Below, piece by piece: positions 9,738 through 16,924 of a stretch of DNA of 16,924 nucleotides. The position numbers were made by a program, and so were the translations under genes. Source of the DNA: a virus (Duplodnaviria > Heunggongvirae > Uroviricota > Caudoviricetes); the IMG/VR virus record IMGVR_UViG_2778261457_000004. One strand, 5' to 3'. How positions within the stretch are numbered: the stretch's first letter is position 1; every line of letters starts with the position of its first letter. The notes under the pieces were generated by a model. It saw nothing but the letters and a program-made list of their open reading frames with translations. It did no database searches and had not been told where the DNA came from.

Positions 9738-10347
<610 letters not shown>

Positions 10348-10457
10348 GTCATTTGTTACCGGTCAGTCTACACATTTCAGATGCTGCGTTAAAAAACCCA
10401 AGTACTTCAAGTAGCACATCGTCATCAACACCCAGCCCCAAGATACGGTGATAAAAT

Positions 10458-11492
10458 TCAAGCCTTAAGAGGCTTTGTGTATGTTCGTGTAATCCATCCA
10501 GTAATAAACTCGTCCCCTGATTTAACCTGCACGAAAAGCCATTGGCGATCTTTTTTATCTAAAACAGCCACTATAGTATTTTTGCCAATGCATTCAATCA
10601 CCTCACTATTTATAGAAGGACTGACGTGTAATCTTACGTTCTCACCAGTTATAAAACGAAAACCATTGAGATCTTCCCAACTAATTTCTTTGTTTTCTTT
10701 AATTAATTGTTGTTTTGATATTGGTTTATCCTCAAACAGAGATATAAAATATGATTCTGCCTTGTGTATTCCCAGCAAGGTTTTCTCTTTTCCGTAATCA
10801 ATAAAAGCACCAAACACAACTTGAGAAAATATAACCATTAGTAACCATTGCAGTGGATAAGGAAGCTCTTTAAATGAATCAACAAACTTTGAGCTAGGTT
10901 TATTTAATCCTTTGTTTTGAACATTACTTTTGGTGTGTGATGTTTCAGTAGCACCTTCAGCATAAGCCTGCGCAATAGATGAAATCCCCTGCTCTATTAT
11001 TTGATGTAATGAAGCATTTCTTGTTCTAGCATAGTGATCTAGTACTTTCTTTATGTCTTGGCTTACATCTATTTTATAACTTGCACTTTGTTGTAATTCT
11101 TTAAGTATCGCTTGCATGTTATTTAAACCAGCTTGCTTATTAAGCACCTCAAGCTGTTTTCGTAATGGCATAGCTATTTCGGCCTGTTTCCTTAGCATTT
11201 GAATATATCTATTTGCGTCATGAGGGAAAAGAGCCTGAGGATGTTTCTGTAAAATCGCGATATGTTCACGATACTTGCTGCCTATTCCAGCCAAGTTCGG
11301 CATACTAGCCAATTGTTTTCGAAGAGAGTTACTAATTACAGCTTGTCTATTCAATCTTGTCATATTTTGAAAAGAATGTTTTTCTATTCCTAATTGTTTT
11401 TGCAAGATCACTACGTGATCTTTGTATGATGGAATGAGCGCTGGCTGTTTATACAGTAACTTCAACTCATTAGAATTAGTAATTTTTGTCAT
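10458..11492 (-). CDS. Bitopic membrane protein with cytoplasmic tandem-repeat region and C-terminal SH3b-like domain, 344 aa
   Basis: AT-rich ORF. ATG at 11490-11492 preferred; the ORF track's TTG at 11525 would add 11 codons. TATAAT-like sequence directly upstream. Internal imperfect repeats (HVVILQKQL…LRKQLASMPNLAGI / HIAILQKHP…LRKQAEIAMPLRKQLEVLNKQAGL). One predicted TM helix (LQWLLMVIFSQVVFGAFIDYG). C-terminal ~75 aa has the SH3b pattern (…VRLHVSPSINSEVIECIGKNTIVAVLDKKDRQWLFVQVKSGDEFITGWITRTY). Confidence 0.7.
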   Translation of the reverse strand: MTKITNSNELKLLYKQPALIPSYKDHVVILQKQLGIEKHSFQNMTRLNRQAVISNSLRKQLASMPNLAGIGSKYREHIAILQKHPQALFPHDANRYIQMLRKQAEIAMPLRKQLEVLNKQAGLNNMQAILKELQQSASYKIDVSQDIKKVLDHYARTRNASLHQIIEQGISSIAQAYAEGATETSHTKSNVQNKGLNKPSSKFVDSFKELPYPLQWLLMVIFSQVVFGAFIDYGKEKTLLGIHKAESYFISLFEDKPISKQQLIKENKEISWEDLNGFRFITGENVRLHVSPSINSEVIECIGKNTIVAVLDKKDRQWLFVQVKSGDEFITGWITRTYTKPLKA

Positions 11493-11566
11493 ATTATTCC
11501 ATTTATATAATAGAATATTACGCAACCAATGTTTTATTGATTGCGTTAATCTTTAACACAGAAAGA

Positions 11567-12043
11567 TCATTTGCCTCGTTTAATACATCCATCCATTTTG
11601 GCTTGTTGATACAACTTACTTAGCCCAGAAAGAGGGAATGTAGCAATTTTTTCATTATCAACATAAGCATCAATCATATTAGCATTTGAATCTGCTGCAT
11701 CTTGCCAAAAGGCATACCACCAAGAATCTCCAACCATTGATCCAAGATTGCTAAAAGGATATTGCTCACCATCTATAGTTAATACTATTTTATTCTTGTC
11801 AGCATTATACTCTTTTTTATTATTCGACGAACTTAGCAACAAGCCTAAACTACCTGCACTATCTGGTGAACCATACATGAATCCCATATCACATAAAAAA
11901 CTTATCTTATCACCATTATGATTATGGATTGTATATTCTCTCCCCCCTCTCTCTTCAATTACATTCCATTGTAGAGGATCTATTTTTGCAAATGTTCCTG
12001 CTGAAACTAACGATACAAATAATAAAAACCATCTCATATTCAT
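11567..12043 (-). CDS. Secreted/periplasmic protein with Sec signal peptide, 158 aa
   Basis: AT-rich ORF; N-terminus MNMRWFLLFVSLVSAGTFA|KID is a typical signal peptide with an AxA-like cleavage site; two Cys residues; no recognisable family. Confidence 0.7.
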   Translation of the reverse strand: MNMRWFLLFVSLVSAGTFAKIDPLQWNVIEERGGREYTIHNHNGDKISFLCDMGFMYGSPDSAGSLGLLLSSSNNKKEYNADKNKIVLTIDGEQYPFSNLGSMVGDSWWYAFWQDAADSNANMIDAYVDNEKIATFPLSGLSKLYQQAKMDGCIKRGK

Positions 12044-12065
12044 TCTTTTCGCTTCTTATCTGTAA

Positions 12066-12416
12066 TTATTCTGCAATATCATTTGCCCATTGCACGGCAG
12101 CAAAATGAGTACCCAAACCACTCAGGAAAGCAATTACCCCCAAAACAATACTTGCTGCTGTTGATTCAAACAAAGTACCAATACTATAGCCAATAGCTCC
12201 CCATACTAAGCTAAATACAATCATCAATGGTATTGCCAGAAATTTTATTCTTAAACTAAAAATCAGTCCAAGAAAAGAACCGCCAAAGGCCCACCATGAT
12301 TTAGACATTAAACCTATCAGTATTGACAGAATTCCTATTTCAATAAAGAGAATATTAGATTGCTCTTCATTGAATTTCGCATTTGTTACACCTTTACGAA
12401 CATGTTCAGATGACAT
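12066..12416 (-). CDS. Small polytopic inner-membrane protein (about 4 TM helices), 116 aa
   Basis: AT-rich ORF with ATG at 12414-12416 and AGGAG about 11 nt upstream. Four hydrophobic segments (ILFIEIGILSILIGLM, WWAFGGSFLGLIFSL, IPLMIVFSLVWGAIGYSIG, ASIVLGVIAFLSGLG). Confidence 0.65.
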   Translation of the reverse strand: MSSEHVRKGVTNAKFNEEQSNILFIEIGILSILIGLMSKSWWAFGGSFLGLIFSLRIKFLAIPLMIVFSLVWGAIGYSIGTLFESTAASIVLGVIAFLSGLGTHFAAVQWANDIAE

Positions 12417-12562
12417 GATTAACTATCTCCTGCCACAGATAAAACGCCTTAAAATAACATTTTGTAGCATAAAGTTTCACCATGCAATGGTCAAAATCTT
12501 TGACCCATATCAATTAAACTCATACATTTTAGTTACCAGAGAAATAATTCACATGGTTGCAA

Positions 12563-12579
12563 GTTGCTCTAATTATTTT
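12563..12579 (+). promoter_or_regulatory. P1 C1-repressor-type operator (Op51-like) upstream of the immunity region
   Basis: GTTGCTCTAATTATTTT matches the asymmetric 17-bp C1 operator consensus ATTGCTCTAATAAATTT (recalled) at 14 of 17 positions. It shares the exact 10-bp core TTGCTCTAAT with two further sites in the window. Confidence 0.5.
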
Positions 12580-12651
12580 ATTTTTTTAGCTTCATATGCT
12601 ACATTAACTTGCTTTAGTGCTAATGCATTTTCGGTTTATCCTAAACAGGCA

Positions 12652-12728
12652 TCTTAGTAAAACGGATGCCGGGATTGGAACCCCGGATAATGCAAAAGGC
12701 GACACAGACGCCAAAAGCGTCTTTTTTT
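12652..12728 (+). ncRNA. Candidate c4-like antisense repressor RNA (boundaries approximate)
   Basis: Stem-loop CCGGG-ATTGGAAC-CCCGG (12669-12686) followed by a terminator-like hairpin. Segment 12669-12700 is an imperfect inverted copy of 12810-12841, which lies just upstream of the icd-like ribosome binding site. Position between a C1-type operator and an icd-ant pair mirrors the P1/P7 immI organisation. Confidence 0.35.
12707..12728 (+). terminator. Intrinsic terminator-like hairpin with U-run
   Basis: GACGC (12707-12711), loop CAAAA, GCGTC (12717-12721), then TTTTTTT (12722-12728) on the plus strand. Confidence 0.5.
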
Positions 12729-12809
12729 GTGTCATGCCATCGCACAGCCATACGTAGCACATAGCTCCGAGATCAATGGTAGTGCTGGCTGGGCTGCCGA
12801 AAGGCAGGC

Positions 12810-12871
12810 CGGTTCCCTTTTGCGCCGGTAGTTCCAACCCAGTCAGTGCTACCGCCATTGAGATTGGAACC
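12810..12871 (+). promoter_or_regulatory. Antisense target / leader region of the icd-ant operon
   Basis: CCTTTTGC (12816-12823), CCGG and GTTCCAA (12831-12837) are complementary to GCAAAAGG, CCGG and TTGGAAC in 12669-12700. GATTGGAACC is directly repeated at 12672-12681 and 12862-12871. GCTACCGC (12848-12855) and GCGGTAGC (12876-12883) form an 8-bp inverted repeat. Confidence 0.4.
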
Positions 12872-12913
12872 TCACGCGGTAGCTCCTTAAATTAGCAAAA
12901 GGAGGCTGCCATT

Positions 12914-13135
12914 GTGGCTACTATCCCTACCCCTACTCATCCTGAATTTATCTGGCGCTTTTACTCCTGCCAAAAACAACACTATCACTTCGTTATCGCA
13001 GCAACTGAAGACGAAGCACGCTCTCAATTGCCTGATGGCCCCTGCATTTTTACTGCCCGTTTTTCTACTAACTCGCGCAATTCACTTAGTTACTGGAACC
13101 TCCCCTTCTCTGCCGACGTTCAGGGGGTTTTATGA
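12914..13135 (+). CDS. icd: Small icd-like protein, 73 aa, translationally coupled to the antirepressor
   Basis: GTG start at 12914 eight nt after a GGAGG SD. The stop TGA overlaps the antirepressor ATG (ATGA at 13132-13135). Architecture matches P1 icd; the 73-aa length of P1 Icd is from memory and sequence homology is not verified. Confidence 0.5.
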   Translation: MATIPTPTHPEFIWRFYSCQKQHYHFVIAATEDEARSQLPDGPCIFTARFSTNSRNSLSYWNLPFSADVQGVL

Positions 13136-14520
13136 AAAAACCTCTCGTCACCCGTAATGAAATTGCCGAAGCGTTCGCTTTGCATACAACCTGTATGCCG
13201 ACACGGGAGATCCCCGGCGCAATTGCCAACTATTTCATGATAACCAGGCGTTTTTATACCCGAACAGATAAGGCTGTGATCAACAGGCTACTGATAGCCG
13301 AGATCAGGGATTATTTGATTGAACAAGGACGTCTACGTTACGCAACAGTGGCAGCAGAAATGAGAAAGGAGGCACATAGAATGACCGGTAATAATTTGAA
13401 TGTTGAAAAACCAGCACCTGTTGCTTCAGCTACGCCATCACCAGCTGTGAATGTTATCTCCAACACTGGAGACACAATCGACAGCCAGACACTGTTAAAG
13501 ATGGTCAATGAAGCGCGTAAGTTATGTGGGGAACCAGCGGTTCGGAACAACAAATTCATCGAAAAAATACTCGACGAATTAGAAGGTGAGGACGGTTACA
13601 CAAAAAGTGCAACCGTGCCACCAGGTGGCGGTACGCCTATGGTTGTCATAACCATGACCTACAAACAAGCCCTGCGAGTTGCCGCGCGCGAGTCAAAAGC
13701 GGTCCGCCGTTCGCTACAAACCATGATTCAGGCATTGGAACCTATAAATGTTGAAAATCAGCCTGATGAAATTCCCGTTCTGGAATGGCAGGGAGTACGC
13801 GTCGTGACAACCGAGACTCTTGCTAGAGGGTATGACACTACACCTATTCGTATTCAGCAGAACTACAATCGCAACGAAGAACGATTTGTAGAGGGTAAAC
13901 ACTTCTTTAAAATCAAAGGAGATGAGATAAAAAGTTTGCGACTATCTTTTAGCGAGTTGCAAATTTCCCCCAAGACCAGATCCTTAATACTCTGGACCGA
14001 ACGCGGAGCGGCACGCATGTCTAAGATCGTAGACACAGAGCAAGCGTGGGCATTCTTTGAAAAACTGGAAGACAGCTACTTCCGGCAAAAAGAACAGCAA
14101 CCGGTCACAATCCCCCAAACATTACCAGAAGCCTTGCGCCTGGCCGCCGAGTTGGCAGAACAGAAAATGCAGTTGGAACAACAGCTGGTGGCCGCAGCCC
14201 CTAAAGTCGATTTTGCCGACCGGGTATCAGTGGCTAATGGAATCCTGATCGGGAACTTTGCAAAGGTCGTTGGACTTAAGCAAAACGCCCTTTTCTCATG
14301 GTTGCGCCAGAATGGCATTCTCATGGCTTTTGGAGCGCGCAAAAACGTACCGCGCCAACAGTACATCAACGCCGGGTATTTCACGGTGAAAGAAGTGGTG
14401 CTGGATGATGAAAATGGCTACCAGATACGGCTGACGCCCCAATTAACGGGTAAAGGCCAGCAGTGGTTAACTCGCAAGCTACTTGATGCTGGTTTGTTAA
14501 AACCAGTAGCAATAGGTTAA
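13132..14520 (+). CDS. ant: Phage antirepressor (Ant) with C-terminal KilAC/AntC domain, 462 aa; possible second product from an internal in-frame start
   Basis: ATG at 13132 with AGGGGG SD. Middle region resembles antirepressor ORF6N/AntA-type domains (…WQGVRVVTTETLARGYDTTPIRIQQNYNRNEERFVEGKHFFKI…LILWTERGAARMSKI…). The C-terminus (…LPEALRLAAELAEQ…APKVDFADRV…GYFTVKEVVLDDENGYQIRLTPQLTGKGQQWL…) is the KilAC-type antirepressor domain. An internal in-frame ATG at 13381 follows a strong AAGGAGG SD. Confidence 0.85.
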   Translation: MKKPLVTRNEIAEAFALHTTCMPTREIPGAIANYFMITRRFYTRTDKAVINRLLIAEIRDYLIEQGRLRYATVAAEMRKEAHRMTGNNLNVEKPAPVASATPSPAVNVISNTGDTIDSQTLLKMVNEARKLCGEPAVRNNKFIEKILDELEGEDGYTKSATVPPGGGTPMVVITMTYKQALRVAARESKAVRRSLQTMIQALEPINVENQPDEIPVLEWQGVRVVTTETLARGYDTTPIRIQQNYNRNEERFVEGKHFFKIKGDEIKSLRLSFSELQISPKTRSLILWTERGAARMSKIVDTEQAWAFFEKLEDSYFRQKEQQPVTIPQTLPEALRLAAELAEQKMQLEQQLVAAAPKVDFADRVSVANGILIGNFAKVVGLKQNALFSWLRQNGILMAFGARKNVPRQQYINAGYFTVKEVVLDDENGYQIRLTPQLTGKGQQWLTRKLLDAGLLKPVAIG

Positions 14521-14532
14521 CAAAAGAAAAAA

Positions 14533-14557
14533 CCTGCCAGCAAACTGGCAGGTTTCT
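14533..14557 (+). terminator. Terminator-like hairpin after ant
   Basis: CCTGCCAG, loop CAAA, CTGGCAGG, followed by TTTCT; the U-run is weak. Confidence 0.4.
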
Positions 14558-14597
14558 GAGCAGATCATCCAACCCGATCTGGATCGAGTTAGAAAAA

Positions 14598-14614
14598 TTT
14601 GCTCTAATAAATTT
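14598..14614 (+). promoter_or_regulatory. P1 C1-repressor-type operator (Op53-like) upstream of kilA-repL
   Basis: TTTGCTCTAATAAATTT matches the recalled C1 operator consensus ATTGCTCTAATAAATTT at 16 of 17 positions, about 70 bp upstream of the kilA-like start. An 8-bp inverted repeat AATCACCA…TGGTGATT lies at 14633-14656. Confidence 0.6.
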
Positions 14615-14683
14615 CGTTTTCTAAGTGCAAAGAATCACCATTTCGAGCTGGTGATTGAAGGTTGATGCAAATTTGGAGAAAAA

Positions 14684-15484
14684 ATGCAACAAACATTCAA
14701 TGCGGATATGAATATATCAAACCTTCATCAAAATGTCGATCCTTCAACCACTCTGCCTGTTATTTGTGGTGTTGAAATTACGACCGACCACGCTGGCCGT
14801 TACAACCTTAATGCTCTACACAGAGCGAGCGGACTCGGTGCCCATAAAGCGCCAGCTCAATGGCTAAGAACGCTGTCAGCCAAACAGCTCATCGAAGAGC
14901 TTGAAAAAGAAACTATGCAGAATTGCATAGTTTCGTTCGAAGGCCGTGGCGGCGGCACTTTTGCCCATGAATTGCTCGCTGTGGAGTACGCAGGCTGGAT
15001 TTCTCCCGCGTTTCGGCTGAAGGTAAACCAGACATTTATCGACTATCGAGCCGGAAGATTACAACCTGCTATTCCGCAGAGTCTCCCTGAAGCTCTCCGT
15101 TTGGCTGCCGACCTGGCAGAGCAAAAGCAACGGCTGGAGCAAAAAATGCTTATGGATGCACCTAAAGTCGAATTCGCCGAACGCGTTGCTACCGCCAGCG
15201 GGGTTCTAATCGGCAACTATGCCAAAGTGCTCGGTCTGGGCCAAAACTATCTCTTCACCTGGTTACGTGATAACGGAATTCTGATCGCAACCGGTGAACG
15301 CAGGAACATCCCCAAACAAGAATACATATCCCGTGGGTATTTCACCCTTAAAGAAACCGTGATCGATACAAGCAATGGAAGCAGGATTTCTTTCACGACT
15401 CGTATAACCGGCAAAGGTCAGCAGTGGCTGATGAAGCGATTGCTTGATGCTGGTGTGCTGGTACCTGTCGCGGCAACGCGCTAA
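14684..15484 (+). CDS. kilA: KilA-N domain protein with C-terminal KilAC/AntC domain, 266 aa
   Basis: ATG at 14684 with GGAG SD. N-terminal KilA-N-type region (…NLNALHRASGLGAHKAPAQWLRTLSAKQLIEELEKE…HELLAVEYAGWISPAFRLKVNQ…). C-terminus is paralogous to the Ant C-terminus (…LPEALRLAADLAEQ…APKVEFAERV…GYFTLKETVIDTSNGSRISFTTRITGKGQQWL…). Length equals my recollection of P1 KilA. Confidence 0.8.
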   Translation: MQQTFNADMNISNLHQNVDPSTTLPVICGVEITTDHAGRYNLNALHRASGLGAHKAPAQWLRTLSAKQLIEELEKETMQNCIVSFEGRGGGTFAHELLAVEYAGWISPAFRLKVNQTFIDYRAGRLQPAIPQSLPEALRLAADLAEQKQRLEQKMLMDAPKVEFAERVATASGVLIGNYAKVLGLGQNYLFTWLRDNGILIATGERRNIPKQEYISRGYFTLKETVIDTSNGSRISFTTRITGKGQQWLMKRLLDAGVLVPVAATR

Positions 15485-15513
15485 CAGACGTAGTAAGAAC
15501 CACCAGCATTGTA

Positions 15514-16359
15514 ATGCTGGCTAAAGTCACTTTCCTGAGCTGTATAACGATGAGCGATTTTACTTTTTCTGGCTATGAATTGGCCTGCTTTGTAACACAC
15601 TCCGGTCTATCCCGTAGCGCCGGGCATATCCTGTCGCAATGTGCAAATCTAGCGGCAACAACCAGTGAATACTTCATTCACAAGCCTCACCGCCTGATCG
15701 CGGCAGAAACTGGTTATAGCCAATCAACCGTCGTTCGTGCATTCCGTGAAGCTGTAAACAAAGGAATTCTGTCTGTAGAGATTGTTATCGGCGATCACCG
15801 TGAACGTCGCGCTAACCTGTACCGGTTTACACCATCCTTTTTGGCCTTCGCACAACAAGCCAAAAATGCGCTGATTGAAAGCAAATTAAAGATCTCTTCA
15901 GCGGCAACCAAGGTTAAAGCTGTTCTCGCTAAGACATTGGCTTTATTTAATTTTTTATCCACACCCCCATGTCAAAATGATACCCCCTCCCCCTGTCAGG
16001 ATGACGTGGCAATAAAGAATAAGAAGTCACAAGTTAAAAAAACAAAAAGATCAGTTTCCGGCGGTGCCGGAACGACCAGACTCAAAAAATTGACTTCATG
16101 GATCGCTGAGGCAAAAGCAAAGGCTGACAATCTGCGGTTATCCAAAAAACGCACTCAAAAACATGAGTTCAAGCAGAAAGTAGAGGCGGCTGCGCGGAAA
16201 TATGCTTACCTGAAGAACAAGCGTTCGCCTGATATTGGCGGGATATCAAACTTCGATAACCTACCGCATTGCATGACGGTAAACGAAGCTCTTAATGCGG
16301 TTTTAGCCAAAAATAAAGATAACGAACAATGGGGTATACCGGCAGGATTCAGAGGGTAA
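15514..16359 (+). CDS. repL: Lytic replication protein RepL-like, winged-HTH with lysine-rich C-terminus, 281 aa
   Basis: ORF directly after the kilA-like gene. HTH-like segment …IAAETGYSQSTVVRAFREAVNKGILSV…; basic C-terminal half. Length and position match my recollection of P1 repL (the oriL-containing lytic replicon gene). The start is uncertain: ATG 15514 lies inside an 18-bp palindrome, and the alternative ATG is about 15550. Confidence 0.6.
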   Translation: MLAKVTFLSCITMSDFTFSGYELACFVTHSGLSRSAGHILSQCANLAATTSEYFIHKPHRLIAAETGYSQSTVVRAFREAVNKGILSVEIVIGDHRERRANLYRFTPSFLAFAQQAKNALIESKLKISSAATKVKAVLAKTLALFNFLSTPPCQNDTPSPCQDDVAIKNKKSQVKKTKRSVSGGAGTTRLKKLTSWIAEAKAKADNLRLSKKRTQKHEFKQKVEAAARKYAYLKNKRSPDIGGISNFDNLPHCMTVNEALNAVLAKNKDNEQWGIPAGFRG

Positions 16360-16362
16360 TGA

Positions 16363-16379
16363 ATTGCTCTAATTATAAC
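16363..16379 (+). promoter_or_regulatory. Third C1-type operator-like site, immediately after the repL-like stop
   Basis: ATTGCTCTAATTATAAC matches the recalled consensus at 12 of 17 positions, including the complete first 11 bp; it is followed by a perfect 8-bp palindrome AGTTTGCC-ATGA-GGCAAACT (16402-16421). Confidence 0.4.
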
Positions 16380-16527
16380 CATGCATACTTTCAACGCCTC
16401 TAGTTTGCCATGAGGCAAACTCATAGGCGTCCTGGTAAGAGGACACTGTTGCCAAAACTGGACGTCCCATTATTGCAATTAATAAACAACTAACGGACAA
16501 TTCTACCTAACAATAAGTGGAGTTAAC

Positions 16528-16924
16528 ATGTTGAACCGAAGAACATTTAATGTATTCTGCGATGAATCCTGTCACCTACTAAATGATCATAATAAAGTCA
16601 TGGTATTGGGTGCGCTTTGGTGTCCTGGCACTATCACAAAAAAAATTGCTAGAGACATCAAGGAATTAAAATTAAAACACAATCTAAAACCTGATTTCGA
16701 AATCAAGTGGACTAAAGTATCTGCGTCCAAAGTTGAATTTTACTTAGATGTCGTAGATTACTTCTTCAGCAACCCAGCATTGCGCTTTAGAGGTGTTGTT
16801 GTTCCTGATAAAGAGCAACTGGACCATGCTCGATTCCATCAAGATCATAATACTTTCTATTATAAGATGTTTTTTTATGTCTTAAAAAACATAATCGAAA
16901 GTAACAACACATACAATATCTACC
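16528..16924 (+). CDS. AT-rich accessory protein of unknown function, N-terminal 132 aa (runs off window)
   Basis: ATG at 16528 with GGAG SD, open to the window end (MLNRRTFNVFCDESCHLLNDHNKVMVLGALWCPG…). Composition is much more AT-rich than the replicon genes. The N-terminal …FCDESCH… motif is reminiscent of DUF3800-type proteins, but that assignment is from memory and uncertain. Confidence 0.55.
   Translation, partial: MLNRRTFNVFCDESCHLLNDHNKVMVLGALWCPGTITKKIARDIKELKLKHNLKPDFEIKWTKVSASKVEFYLDVVDYFFSNPALRFRGVVVPDKEQLDHARFHQDHNTFYYKMFFYVLKNIIESNNTYNIY

Follow-up and report, generated by a model that had tools for sequence, protein, structure and literature searches.

The question raised by this locus is what a 10-bp sequence, TTGCTCTAAT, does at three places, 12564-12573, 14599-14608 and 16364-16373, in the window (the whole stretch of 16,924 nt analysed here). 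A preliminary description, made from the letters alone, had listed these three exact cores in the same orientation and compared them with operators of the phage P1 repressor C1; we reproduced the positions, all on the plus strand, and found no other copy on either strand of the window. We conclude that the three 10-mers are very probably the cores of asymmetric 17-bp C1 operators, counterparts of Oc4/Op51, OrepL/Op53 and Orlf/Op55 of P1 (called w1, w2 and w3 below), which would work in the circuit described further below. The features are collected in Table 1.

Table 1. Operators, promoters, RNAs and genes around the three copies of the repeat (positions in the window; bits from the C1 operator matrix unless Rfam is named).
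Feature	Position	Strand	Remarks
Promoter-like site TTGACC-17-TACATT	12500..12528	+	Second promoter-like site, 35 nt upstream of w1
Promoter-like site TTCACA-17-AATTAT	12548..12576	+	9/12 match; spacer and -10 inside w1
w1, GTTGCTCTAATTATTTT	12563..12579	+	Probable C1 operator, P1 Oc4/Op51 equivalent in a non-P1 ImmI leader; 17.9 bits
isrK-like small RNA	12649..12727	+	Rfam RF01394, 58.5 bits (gathering score 50); opens the leader
C4 antisense RNA	12772..12859	+	ImmI secondary repressor, D6-type allele; Rfam RF01695, 76.7 bits
icd	12914..13135	+	Cell-division inhibitor, 73 aa; ORF, Icd-like annotation in relatives
ant1/ant2	13132..14520	+	Antirepressor, long variant, 462 aa; Pfam ORF6N and KilAC
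P53/PkilA promoter	14580..14608	+	Coordinates transferred from P1; -35 TGGATC with Dam site
w2, TTTGCTCTAATAAATTT	14598..14614	+	Probable C1 operator OrepL/Op53; identical to P1 49810-49826; 23.4 bits
kilA	14684..15484	+	Pfam KilA-N and KilAC; P1 annotation
repL	15514..16359	+	Lytic origin oriL inside; P1 annotation
w3, ATTGCTCTAATTATAAC	16363..16379	+	Probable C1 operator Orlf/Op55; identical to P1 51575-51591; 17.1 bits
rlfA, 5' part	16528..16924	+	The AT-rich gene; Pfam DUF3800; P1 annotation

Judged by its sequence, the window is part of a P1-family phage-plasmid, i.e., a P1-like plasmid prophage. It is 97% identical to P1 36972-52136, and its best match among phages, plasmids and complete E. 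coli genomes has 98.2% identity over 96% of the window. The 16.9-kb window stops short of the ImmC region and carries no c1 gene; presence of the repressor is known from close relatives only. In NZ_JBSJZL010000003.1, the complete replicon closest to the window (98.2% identical), all three operator sites recur, and the C1 encoded there is identical to P1 C1 at 281 of 283 positions (the gene adjoins a coi-sized gene). The search for a c1-like repressor and the scan of a full replicon proposed in the preliminary description were carried out on this relative, where 21 operator-type sites of at least 13 bits were found in total, dispersed and at P1-syntenic positions. Together with the 97% identity, the comparison with P1, in which w2 and w3 match P1 operators base for base, bears out the earlier placement of the element in the P1 regulatory family.

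Recurrence of the 10-mer is far above expectation (0.07 copies per window), and three copies were reached in 0 of 200 dinucleotide-preserving shuffles, in agreement with the earlier remark that such a triple repeat is very unlikely by chance. The majority consensus of P1's 20 annotated C1 operators is ATTGCTCTAATAAATTT, the sequence also given for the 22 dispersed C1 operators of P1 (PMC8546580), so the consensus used in the preliminary description, with 16 of 17 matches at the second site, was correct. Each of the three sites is an asymmetric 17-bp match containing the conserved core TGCWCTAAT; w1 agrees with the consensus at 14/17 positions, w2 at 16/17, and w3, which is identical to Op55, at 12/17. 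With a scoring matrix built from the same 20 operators, the three sites score from 17.1 to 23.4 bits and the rest of the window at most 8.8 bits; most P1 operators score 14-27 bits, a range that includes w1, w2 and w3 (Oc1b is lower, 5.1). The core does include a -10-like hexamer (TCTAAT) and lies in AT-rich intergenic regions, as expected if an AT-rich 10-mer, or three such hexamers with no repressor, had recurred by chance. This explanation is refuted, and we leave it practically no probability, given the shuffles, the identity of w2 and w3 to annotated P1 C1 sites, the binding and repression reported for Op53, and the near-identical C1 of relatives.

The second site, w2, 70 nt upstream of the kilA start codon, overlaps a sigma-70 promoter, as judged from an operator, -10 and -35 that are the same as those of P53 in P1, a promoter defined by experiment; the -10 (TCTAAT) is inside the operator. 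The 17-mer, the overlap with the -10, the -35/Dam site, the downstream genes and the distance to kilA are all as in P1, which differs in two spacer substitutions just upstream of the operator (the only two in the 20-nt flanks) and in its upstream Ant1 gene, of which the window has a longer variant; over 14110-16924 the window is 98.9% identical to P1. In P1, Op53 overlaps P53 and C1 binding there represses kilA-repL (PMC9948254). Exact copies of the w2 17-mer were counted in 63 related loci and single-base variants in a further 2; the loci that reach far enough upstream number 64. The site had been called Op53-like from its place before kilA-repL, and its sequence is indeed that of P1 OrepL/Op53.

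The first site holds the position of P1 Oc4 ahead of c4-icd-ant, 193 nt upstream of C4 and 335 nt upstream of icd. The order known from the P1/P7 ImmI operon (C4 antisense RNA, then icd, then ant1/ant2) is found here, so that position and content both agree with the earlier reading of w1 as Op51-like. P1 Oc4/Op51, with its promoter P51a (P2c4), likewise heads the ImmI operon in the same orientation, with an identical core, TGCTCTAAT; it differs from w1 at 4/17 positions, and both flanks of w1 are non-homologous to P1, so that the operator is the only stretch common to the two leaders. The geometry also differs, since the 3' end of the P1 operator overlaps the -35 of P51a, whereas w1 overlaps the spacer and -10 of its candidate promoter and is in this respect Op53-like.

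That candidate, TTCACA-17-AATTAT, may be a C1-repressible promoter of the ImmI operon, with the reservation that promoter-like sites in the w1 region are no commoner than in shuffles; most relatives have TTTACA as the -35, and the two diverged ones TTTATA. The upstream site TTGACC-17-TACATT is possibly a tandem promoter, in which case w1 would act from about +28. It is largely conserved in relatives (its -35 is TTGATC in the two diverged loci) and overlaps a weak operator-like 17-mer of 8.8 bits at 12513-12529. The w1 17-mer (or its A1 variant) is found together with this leader in 10 other loci, i.e., 9 IMG/VR contigs and the nearest complete plasmid. Two diverged leaders of the window type carry about 10 changes over the 30 nt that precede the operator and none in operator positions 2-17, and among IMG/VR contigs an Op51-type site heads at least three leader types and at least five left-hand modules.

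The leader behind w1 is not that of P1. The first element is an isrK-like RNA with an intrinsic terminator at 12706-12727, where P1 has c4-a1b1 (RF03163, the P1-type leader with a1/b1 target sites for C4); RF03163 is present in P1 and RCS47 and has no match in the window. The C4 RNA of the window is near-identical to that of phage D6 and strongly diverged from P1 C4. Homology to P1 begins at 12941, within icd, and is absent again from the central segment of ant1/ant2 (13716-14109); upstream of the operator, three other genes stand in place of P1 simABC. The isrK-like/C4/icd/ant cassette of D6 is 94% identical to window 12648-12940. The order of elements also resembles the isrK-orf45-anrP operon of Gifsy-1 (Salmonella), in which a small RNA with a leaky terminator is followed by a processed RNA or small ORF and then by an antirepressor (PMC4825925). 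We looked for a C1-type operator upstream of the D6 isrK/C4 cassette and found none, and descent of w1 from D6 was rejected on this ground; in D6 a promoter of its own seems to lie directly before the isrK-like RNA, where the window instead has the operator-bearing sequence.

The third site was described earlier as lying right after the repL stop and before an AT-rich gene; this holds, and the site turns out to be the catalogued P1 operator Orlf/Op55, which had not been named. w3 starts 4 nt past the end of the repL stop codon, and its own end is 149 nt ahead of the rlfA start codon; the GC content of rlfA is 34.5%, vs 45% for the whole window. There is essentially no difference from P1: the 17-mer, its place after the repL stop and the rlfA (DUF3800) gene downstream are all as in the window, with one substitution in the 20-nt flanks, 15 nt downstream of the operator. 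We infer from position that rlfA may be controlled through Op55, in which case it might, as the preliminary description suggested, be expressed only on induction. In the P1 record, 'controls expression of' is stated for Oc4 and OrepL and is absent for Orlf, which the record describes as a site of C1 binding, and a full-text literature search for Op55 returned nothing on P1. The predicted PrlfA of P1 lies about 95-120 nt downstream of Orlf with no overlap with w3, so repressor bound at the operator would leave this promoter uncovered; no promoter overlapping w3 was found at the threshold of the promoter scan, below which a TTCAGA-17-AATTAT (8/12) can be read by eye.

These observations leave some room for a different role, possible though in our view unlikely, in which w3 binds C1 without regulating rlfA and belongs to the lytic replicon, either as a roadblock that closes the kilA-repL/oriL unit on its 3' side or as a loop partner of Op53, 1.77 kb upstream, the two bracketing oriL. 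The place of the operator, 4 nt behind repL and 149 nt from the rlfA ATG, fits such a role, as do the missing statement of expression control and the distance of PrlfA; C1-mediated looping between operators in the P1 c1 region was reportedly described by Heinzel et al. in 1992. Anchored on repL alone, 63 of 64 loci keep the 11-nt core of w3 beside repL whichever module lies downstream, with homology ending exactly after the core, which is weak evidence because a perfect 27-nt match in repL was the selection criterion for these loci, whose identity is in any case about 97-99%. The complete Op55 is a minority form among relatives (14/85). In the other 71/85, the 3' half of the operator is swapped for non-consensus sequence (2.3 bits; junction ATTGCTCTAATCTGGAG), and only the core remains, ahead of a module (membrane-ORF/Hok-sok) with a membrane ORF of 81 aa and a Hok-like toxin. 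A regulatory role of Op55 is therefore not universal, and binding of C1 to the majority form is doubtful, which also counts against a role in the lytic replicon.

In many relatives, mosaic junctions fall exactly at operator cores. Where the leader is of the P1 type, sim or whatever replaces it as left-hand cargo abuts the Op51 core precisely on its 5' side; on the right, the cargo (rlfA/B or membrane-ORF/Hok-sok) abuts the Op55 core precisely on its 3' side. It is conceivable, if rather doubtful, that operator cores are the mosaic seams of the P1 family, either as micro-homology for module exchange or, for Op55, as a part of the lytic replicon kept regardless of cargo. Coincidence of junctions and sites could also be read to mean that mobile modules end or recombine at the repeats, which would then not be operators, the more so as homology is lost in many relatives at 16373, where the w3 core has its final base, and as the Op51 17-mer of P1-type leaders varies in its first 2-3 nt along with the left-hand module. 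A junction at this position is, however, compatible with an operator. Identity among the three copies ends after 10-13 nt, with the 40-nt flanks at chance (9-16/40), unlike the terminal repeats of an insertion sequence or transposon; all copies are direct, 1.8-2.0 kb apart and have no inverted partner; the motif occurs at the 21 dispersed sites of the full replicon matching P1 operator positions; and in RCS47 the neighbouring ISEc46 lies inside the alternative module and not at the operator. The mobile-element end, named in the preliminary description as what would speak against operators, is thus largely refuted and very improbable. A specific variant, insertion of an IS200/IS605 element at 16373 (RCS47 has the ISEc46 tnpB just downstream), was rejected because most relatives share the junction and continue with the membrane ORF and Hok-like toxin, with no IS.

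With the three sites taken as C1 operators, the circuit would be as follows. In the lysogen, C1 made from the distant ImmC region would bind all three sites, aided by Lxc and opposed by Coi and Ant1/2. At w2, by analogy with P1, where this step was shown experimentally for an identical operator and -10, C1 would cover the P53 -10, block kilA-repL transcription and so block lytic replication from oriL. At w1, where the operator lies over the promoter-like spacer and -10, we infer from this anatomy and the Op51 precedent that C1 would limit transcription of ImmI (isrK-like RNA, C4 RNA, icd and ant1/2). w3 is very probably bound by C1 because its sequence is identical to Op55, and an effect on rlfA may be supposed. 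Once C1 is inactivated, all three units would be derepressed together.

The C1 operator system of P1 is already well described, and the earlier reading of this locus is correct. Its main value is annotation, in that the lytic replicon and the antirepressor operon would be wired to C1 in the classical way in a P1-type phage-plasmid. Beyond this, control of rlfA through Op55 is a supposition, and most relatives retain half of that operator. If the seams are real, the short, conserved, multi-copy cores would serve module exchange among phage-plasmids, or the Op55 core would be a roadblock or loop anchor. A further addition is that C1 control of the ImmI operon appears to have been kept although an isrK-like/D6-type C4 cassette has taken the place of the whole leader, an argument that the link between C1 and ImmI may be under selection.

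The 16,924-bp window contains three copies of the 10-bp core TTGCTCTAAT (at 12564, 14599 and 16364), all on the plus strand, and none on the minus strand. The preliminary description held three exact cores in one orientation to be improbable by chance, and this is borne out: the expected count is 0.07 and 0 of 200 dinucleotide-preserving shuffles contained three copies, which excludes chance recurrence. It had also matched the second site, w2, to an operator 17-mer at 16 of 17 positions; we reproduced this count (w1, the first site, matches at 14 of 17), and the 17-mer, ATTGCTCTAATAAATTT, is the majority consensus of the 20 aligned C1 operators annotated in P1 (PMC8546580 quotes the same sequence and gives 22 dispersed C1 operators in P1). 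Both window strands were scored with a log-odds matrix derived from these 20 operators (the table lists the scores), and besides w1, w2 and the third site, w3, no position on either strand scored above 8.8 bits; most P1 operators score 14–27 bits, Op55 being intrinsically among the weaker ones. Identity between the copies ends after 10–13 nt and their 40-nt flanks agree at just 9–16 positions, so these are short sites rather than the termini of a longer repeat. Mobile-element ends, the alternative raised at the outset, are ruled out by this lack of extended identity together with the dispersed, regulon-like distribution of the sites.

By megablast, the window is a P1 family member (97.4% identity over P1 36972–52136, AF234172), the matching span running from tail-fibre gene S, sit, tub and pmgC to icd-ant, kilA, repL and rlfA; hundreds of plasmids of E. 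coli, Salmonella and Klebsiella also match it. Pfam domains are ORF6N and KilAC in Ant1, KilA-N and KilAC in KilA, and DUF3800 in RlfA. The Op51-like and Op53-like assignments hold in this comparison, and the sequences support w1, w2 and w3 as the equivalents of P1 Op51, Op53 and Op55. Sites w2 and w3 are identical to catalogued operators (OrepL, with two substitutions in the 20-nt flanks, and Orlf, with one), and w1 is an Op51 variant in a swapped leader. What is seen here is the textbook regulon of P1 C1 and its operators, already known. We note that P1 Omat (2628–2645 of AF234172) is annotated on the minus strand, yet CATGCACTAATAAATAT, its operator sequence, is read from the plus strand, and that the feature is 18 nt long instead of 17. 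Window positions 1–700, in the S region, lack a close counterpart in P1, which fits the variable C-terminal, host-range part of S.

Features of the window and the corresponding P1 operators
Feature	Position	Strand	Remark
ORFs replacing simABC	10458-12416	-	355 aa (weak SH3_3), 158 aa, 116 aa (membrane-bound look)
Promoter-like TTGACC-17-TACATT	12500-12528	+	35 nt upstream of w1
Weak operator-like ATTAAACTCATACATTT	12513-12529	+	8.8 bits
Promoter-like TTCACA-17-AATTAT	12548-12576		spacer and -10 within w1
w1	12563-12579	+	17.9 bits
isrK-like RNA with intrinsic terminator	12649-12727	+	Rfam RF01394, 58.5 bits
C4 RNA	12772-12859	+	Rfam, 76.7 bits
ant1 central segment	13716-14109	+	no match to P1
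GC-rich hairpin, 13 bp	14528-14557		between ant1 stop codon and Op53/P53
w2	14598-14614	+	23.4 bits
w3	16363-16379	+	17.1 bits
P1 Oc4 (former Op51)	P1 48140-48156		P1 record: monovalent C1-controlled operator
P1 OrepL (former Op53)	P1 49810-49826		P1 record: monovalent C1-controlled operator
P1 Orlf (former Op55)	P1 51575-51591		P1 record: monovalent C1-controlled operator

The window ends short of ImmC, the region encoding c1, and the databases contain no identical record, so the repressor was examined in the nearest complete replicon, the 96-kb plasmid NZ_JBSJZL010000003.1 (98.2% identity over 96% of the window), which has the three sites too. Its 'phage repressor protein C1' is identical to P1 C1.100 at 281 of 283 positions, so that the absence of a C1-like repressor, which would have spoken against C1 control, is contradicted as far as testable. 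The proposed whole-replicon motif scan gave 21 sites scoring 13 bits or more, in synteny with P1 operators (dmt, ban, 26, ppp, pmgR, pmgT, lpa, c1/coi, cre, ref, mat and ssb).

P1 homology ends at 12941, within icd, and 10300–12940 is a different module from that of P1, found at 98–99% identity in at least 27 E. coli plasmids. In it three minus-strand ORFs (34% GC) stand in place of simABC, the superimmunity genes of P1. The sole significant BLAST match of the leader (12417–12941) to the P1 leader is a 23-nt stretch, the operator itself. P1 and RCS47 have c4-a1b1 (RF03163) plus C4; in the window an isrK-like RNA (Hfq-binding type) takes the place of c4-a1b1, between the C1 operator and C4. The C4 of the window is the allele of phage D6 and is far removed from that of P1, and the specificity of ImmI (the c4-icd-ant operon) probably differs from that of P1 and P7. 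D6 shares the isrK-like/C4/icd cassette, yet lacks a C1-type operator ahead of it; thus the operator-bearing segment would plug the cassette into the C1 regulon.

The promoter-like site overlapping w1 (-35 TTTACA or TTTATA in relatives) resembles Op53/P53 in geometry, unlike P1 Op51/P51a, where the operator abuts the -35; we infer that C1 represses this candidate promoter. With the upstream promoter-like site, which a weak operator-like 17-mer overlaps, it may form a tandem arrangement like P51a/P51b of P1. In its order (isrK-like, C4, icd, ant) the region parallels the Gifsy-1 isrK-orf45-anrP operon, and by analogy with Gifsy-1 isrK (PMC4825925) transcripts from the candidate promoter would partly end at the isrK-like terminator and partly read into c4-icd-ant. 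In related plasmids a RefSeq CDS for a 39-aa 'ash family protein' (L005 41255–41374, equal to window 12776–12895) lies over the C4 RNA gene and is probably an annotation artefact. Further downstream, the central segment of ant1 adds an ORF6N domain (window Ant1 is 462 aa vs 347 aa); IMG/VR contigs of both leader types show the same length polymorphism (~365 bp), with the operator placed at about -3430 or about -3795 relative to the repL end.

According to the P1 annotation, the w2 operator contains the P53/PkilA -10 hexamer (TCTAAT), and a Dam site lies in the -35 (TGGATC). In P1, C1 bound to Op53 blocks P53 and hence kilA-repL expression and lytic replication (PMC9948254, crediting Eliason and Sternberg 1987 and Velleman 1987). 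Because operator, -10 and -35 are identical, this mechanism transfers directly: C1 at w2 would shut off P53, and with it kilA-repL, blocking lytic replication. The hairpin upstream of w2 is terminator-like on the minus strand by scan and may serve as an insulator between the ImmI operon and the lytic replicon.

C1 very likely binds w3, given its identity to Op55. The site begins 4 nt past the final base of the repL stop codon, and 149 nt separate its end from the rlfA ATG; by position only, it is a putative rlfA operator. In the P1 record the name Orlf comes without any 'controls expression' statement, with a predicted PrlfA ~95–120 nt downstream; by eye, a weak TTCAGA-17-AATTAT frame (8/12), analogous to that at w1, surrounds w3. 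A live alternative to an rlfA operator is that w3 acts as a roadblock or loop anchor for the lytic replicon, the only rival reading worth keeping.

Conservation was assessed among P1-like contigs gathered from IMG/VR. Almost every locus whose upstream sequence reaches far enough has an Op51-type site; the leaders to its right are of three unrelated kinds, and the modules to its left of at least five. The Op53 17-mer is exact in 63 loci, with two single-base variants (64 have enough upstream sequence). Anchored on the repL 3' end alone, the Op55 core is ATTGCTCTAAT in 63 of 64 loci and ATTGTTCTAAT in one, a count that is weak evidence because these loci are near-identical. In the two diverged window-type leaders, ~10 of the 30 nt upstream of the operator differ while operator positions 2–17 are unchanged. 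Together, these sequence comparisons argue that C1 control of ImmI is under selection.

In P1-leader loci the first 2–3 nt of the Op51 17-mer change along with the left-hand module, whose junction coincides with the 5' edge of the core. Among 85 loci found with the Op55 core included in the search pattern, the 3' half is TATAAC... (P1/window type, with rlfA) in just 14 and CTGGAGTCACC... (2.3 bits) in the other 71, which lead into a module with an 81-aa membrane ORF, a Hok-like toxin and sok RNA; RCS47 additionally carries ISEc46 tnpB downstream of the core. Homology ends right after this core (16373/16374) in 71 of 85 contigs (L024, L006 and 69 others). These comparisons also show mosaic junctions at operator cores; the sim and rlf regions were already known as variable, low-GC hot-spots (PMC6906374). 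The residual interest lies in an ImmI leader with isrK-like RNA and D6-type C4 that would be under C1 control, in the putative role of Op55, and in the coincidence of junctions with operator cores.
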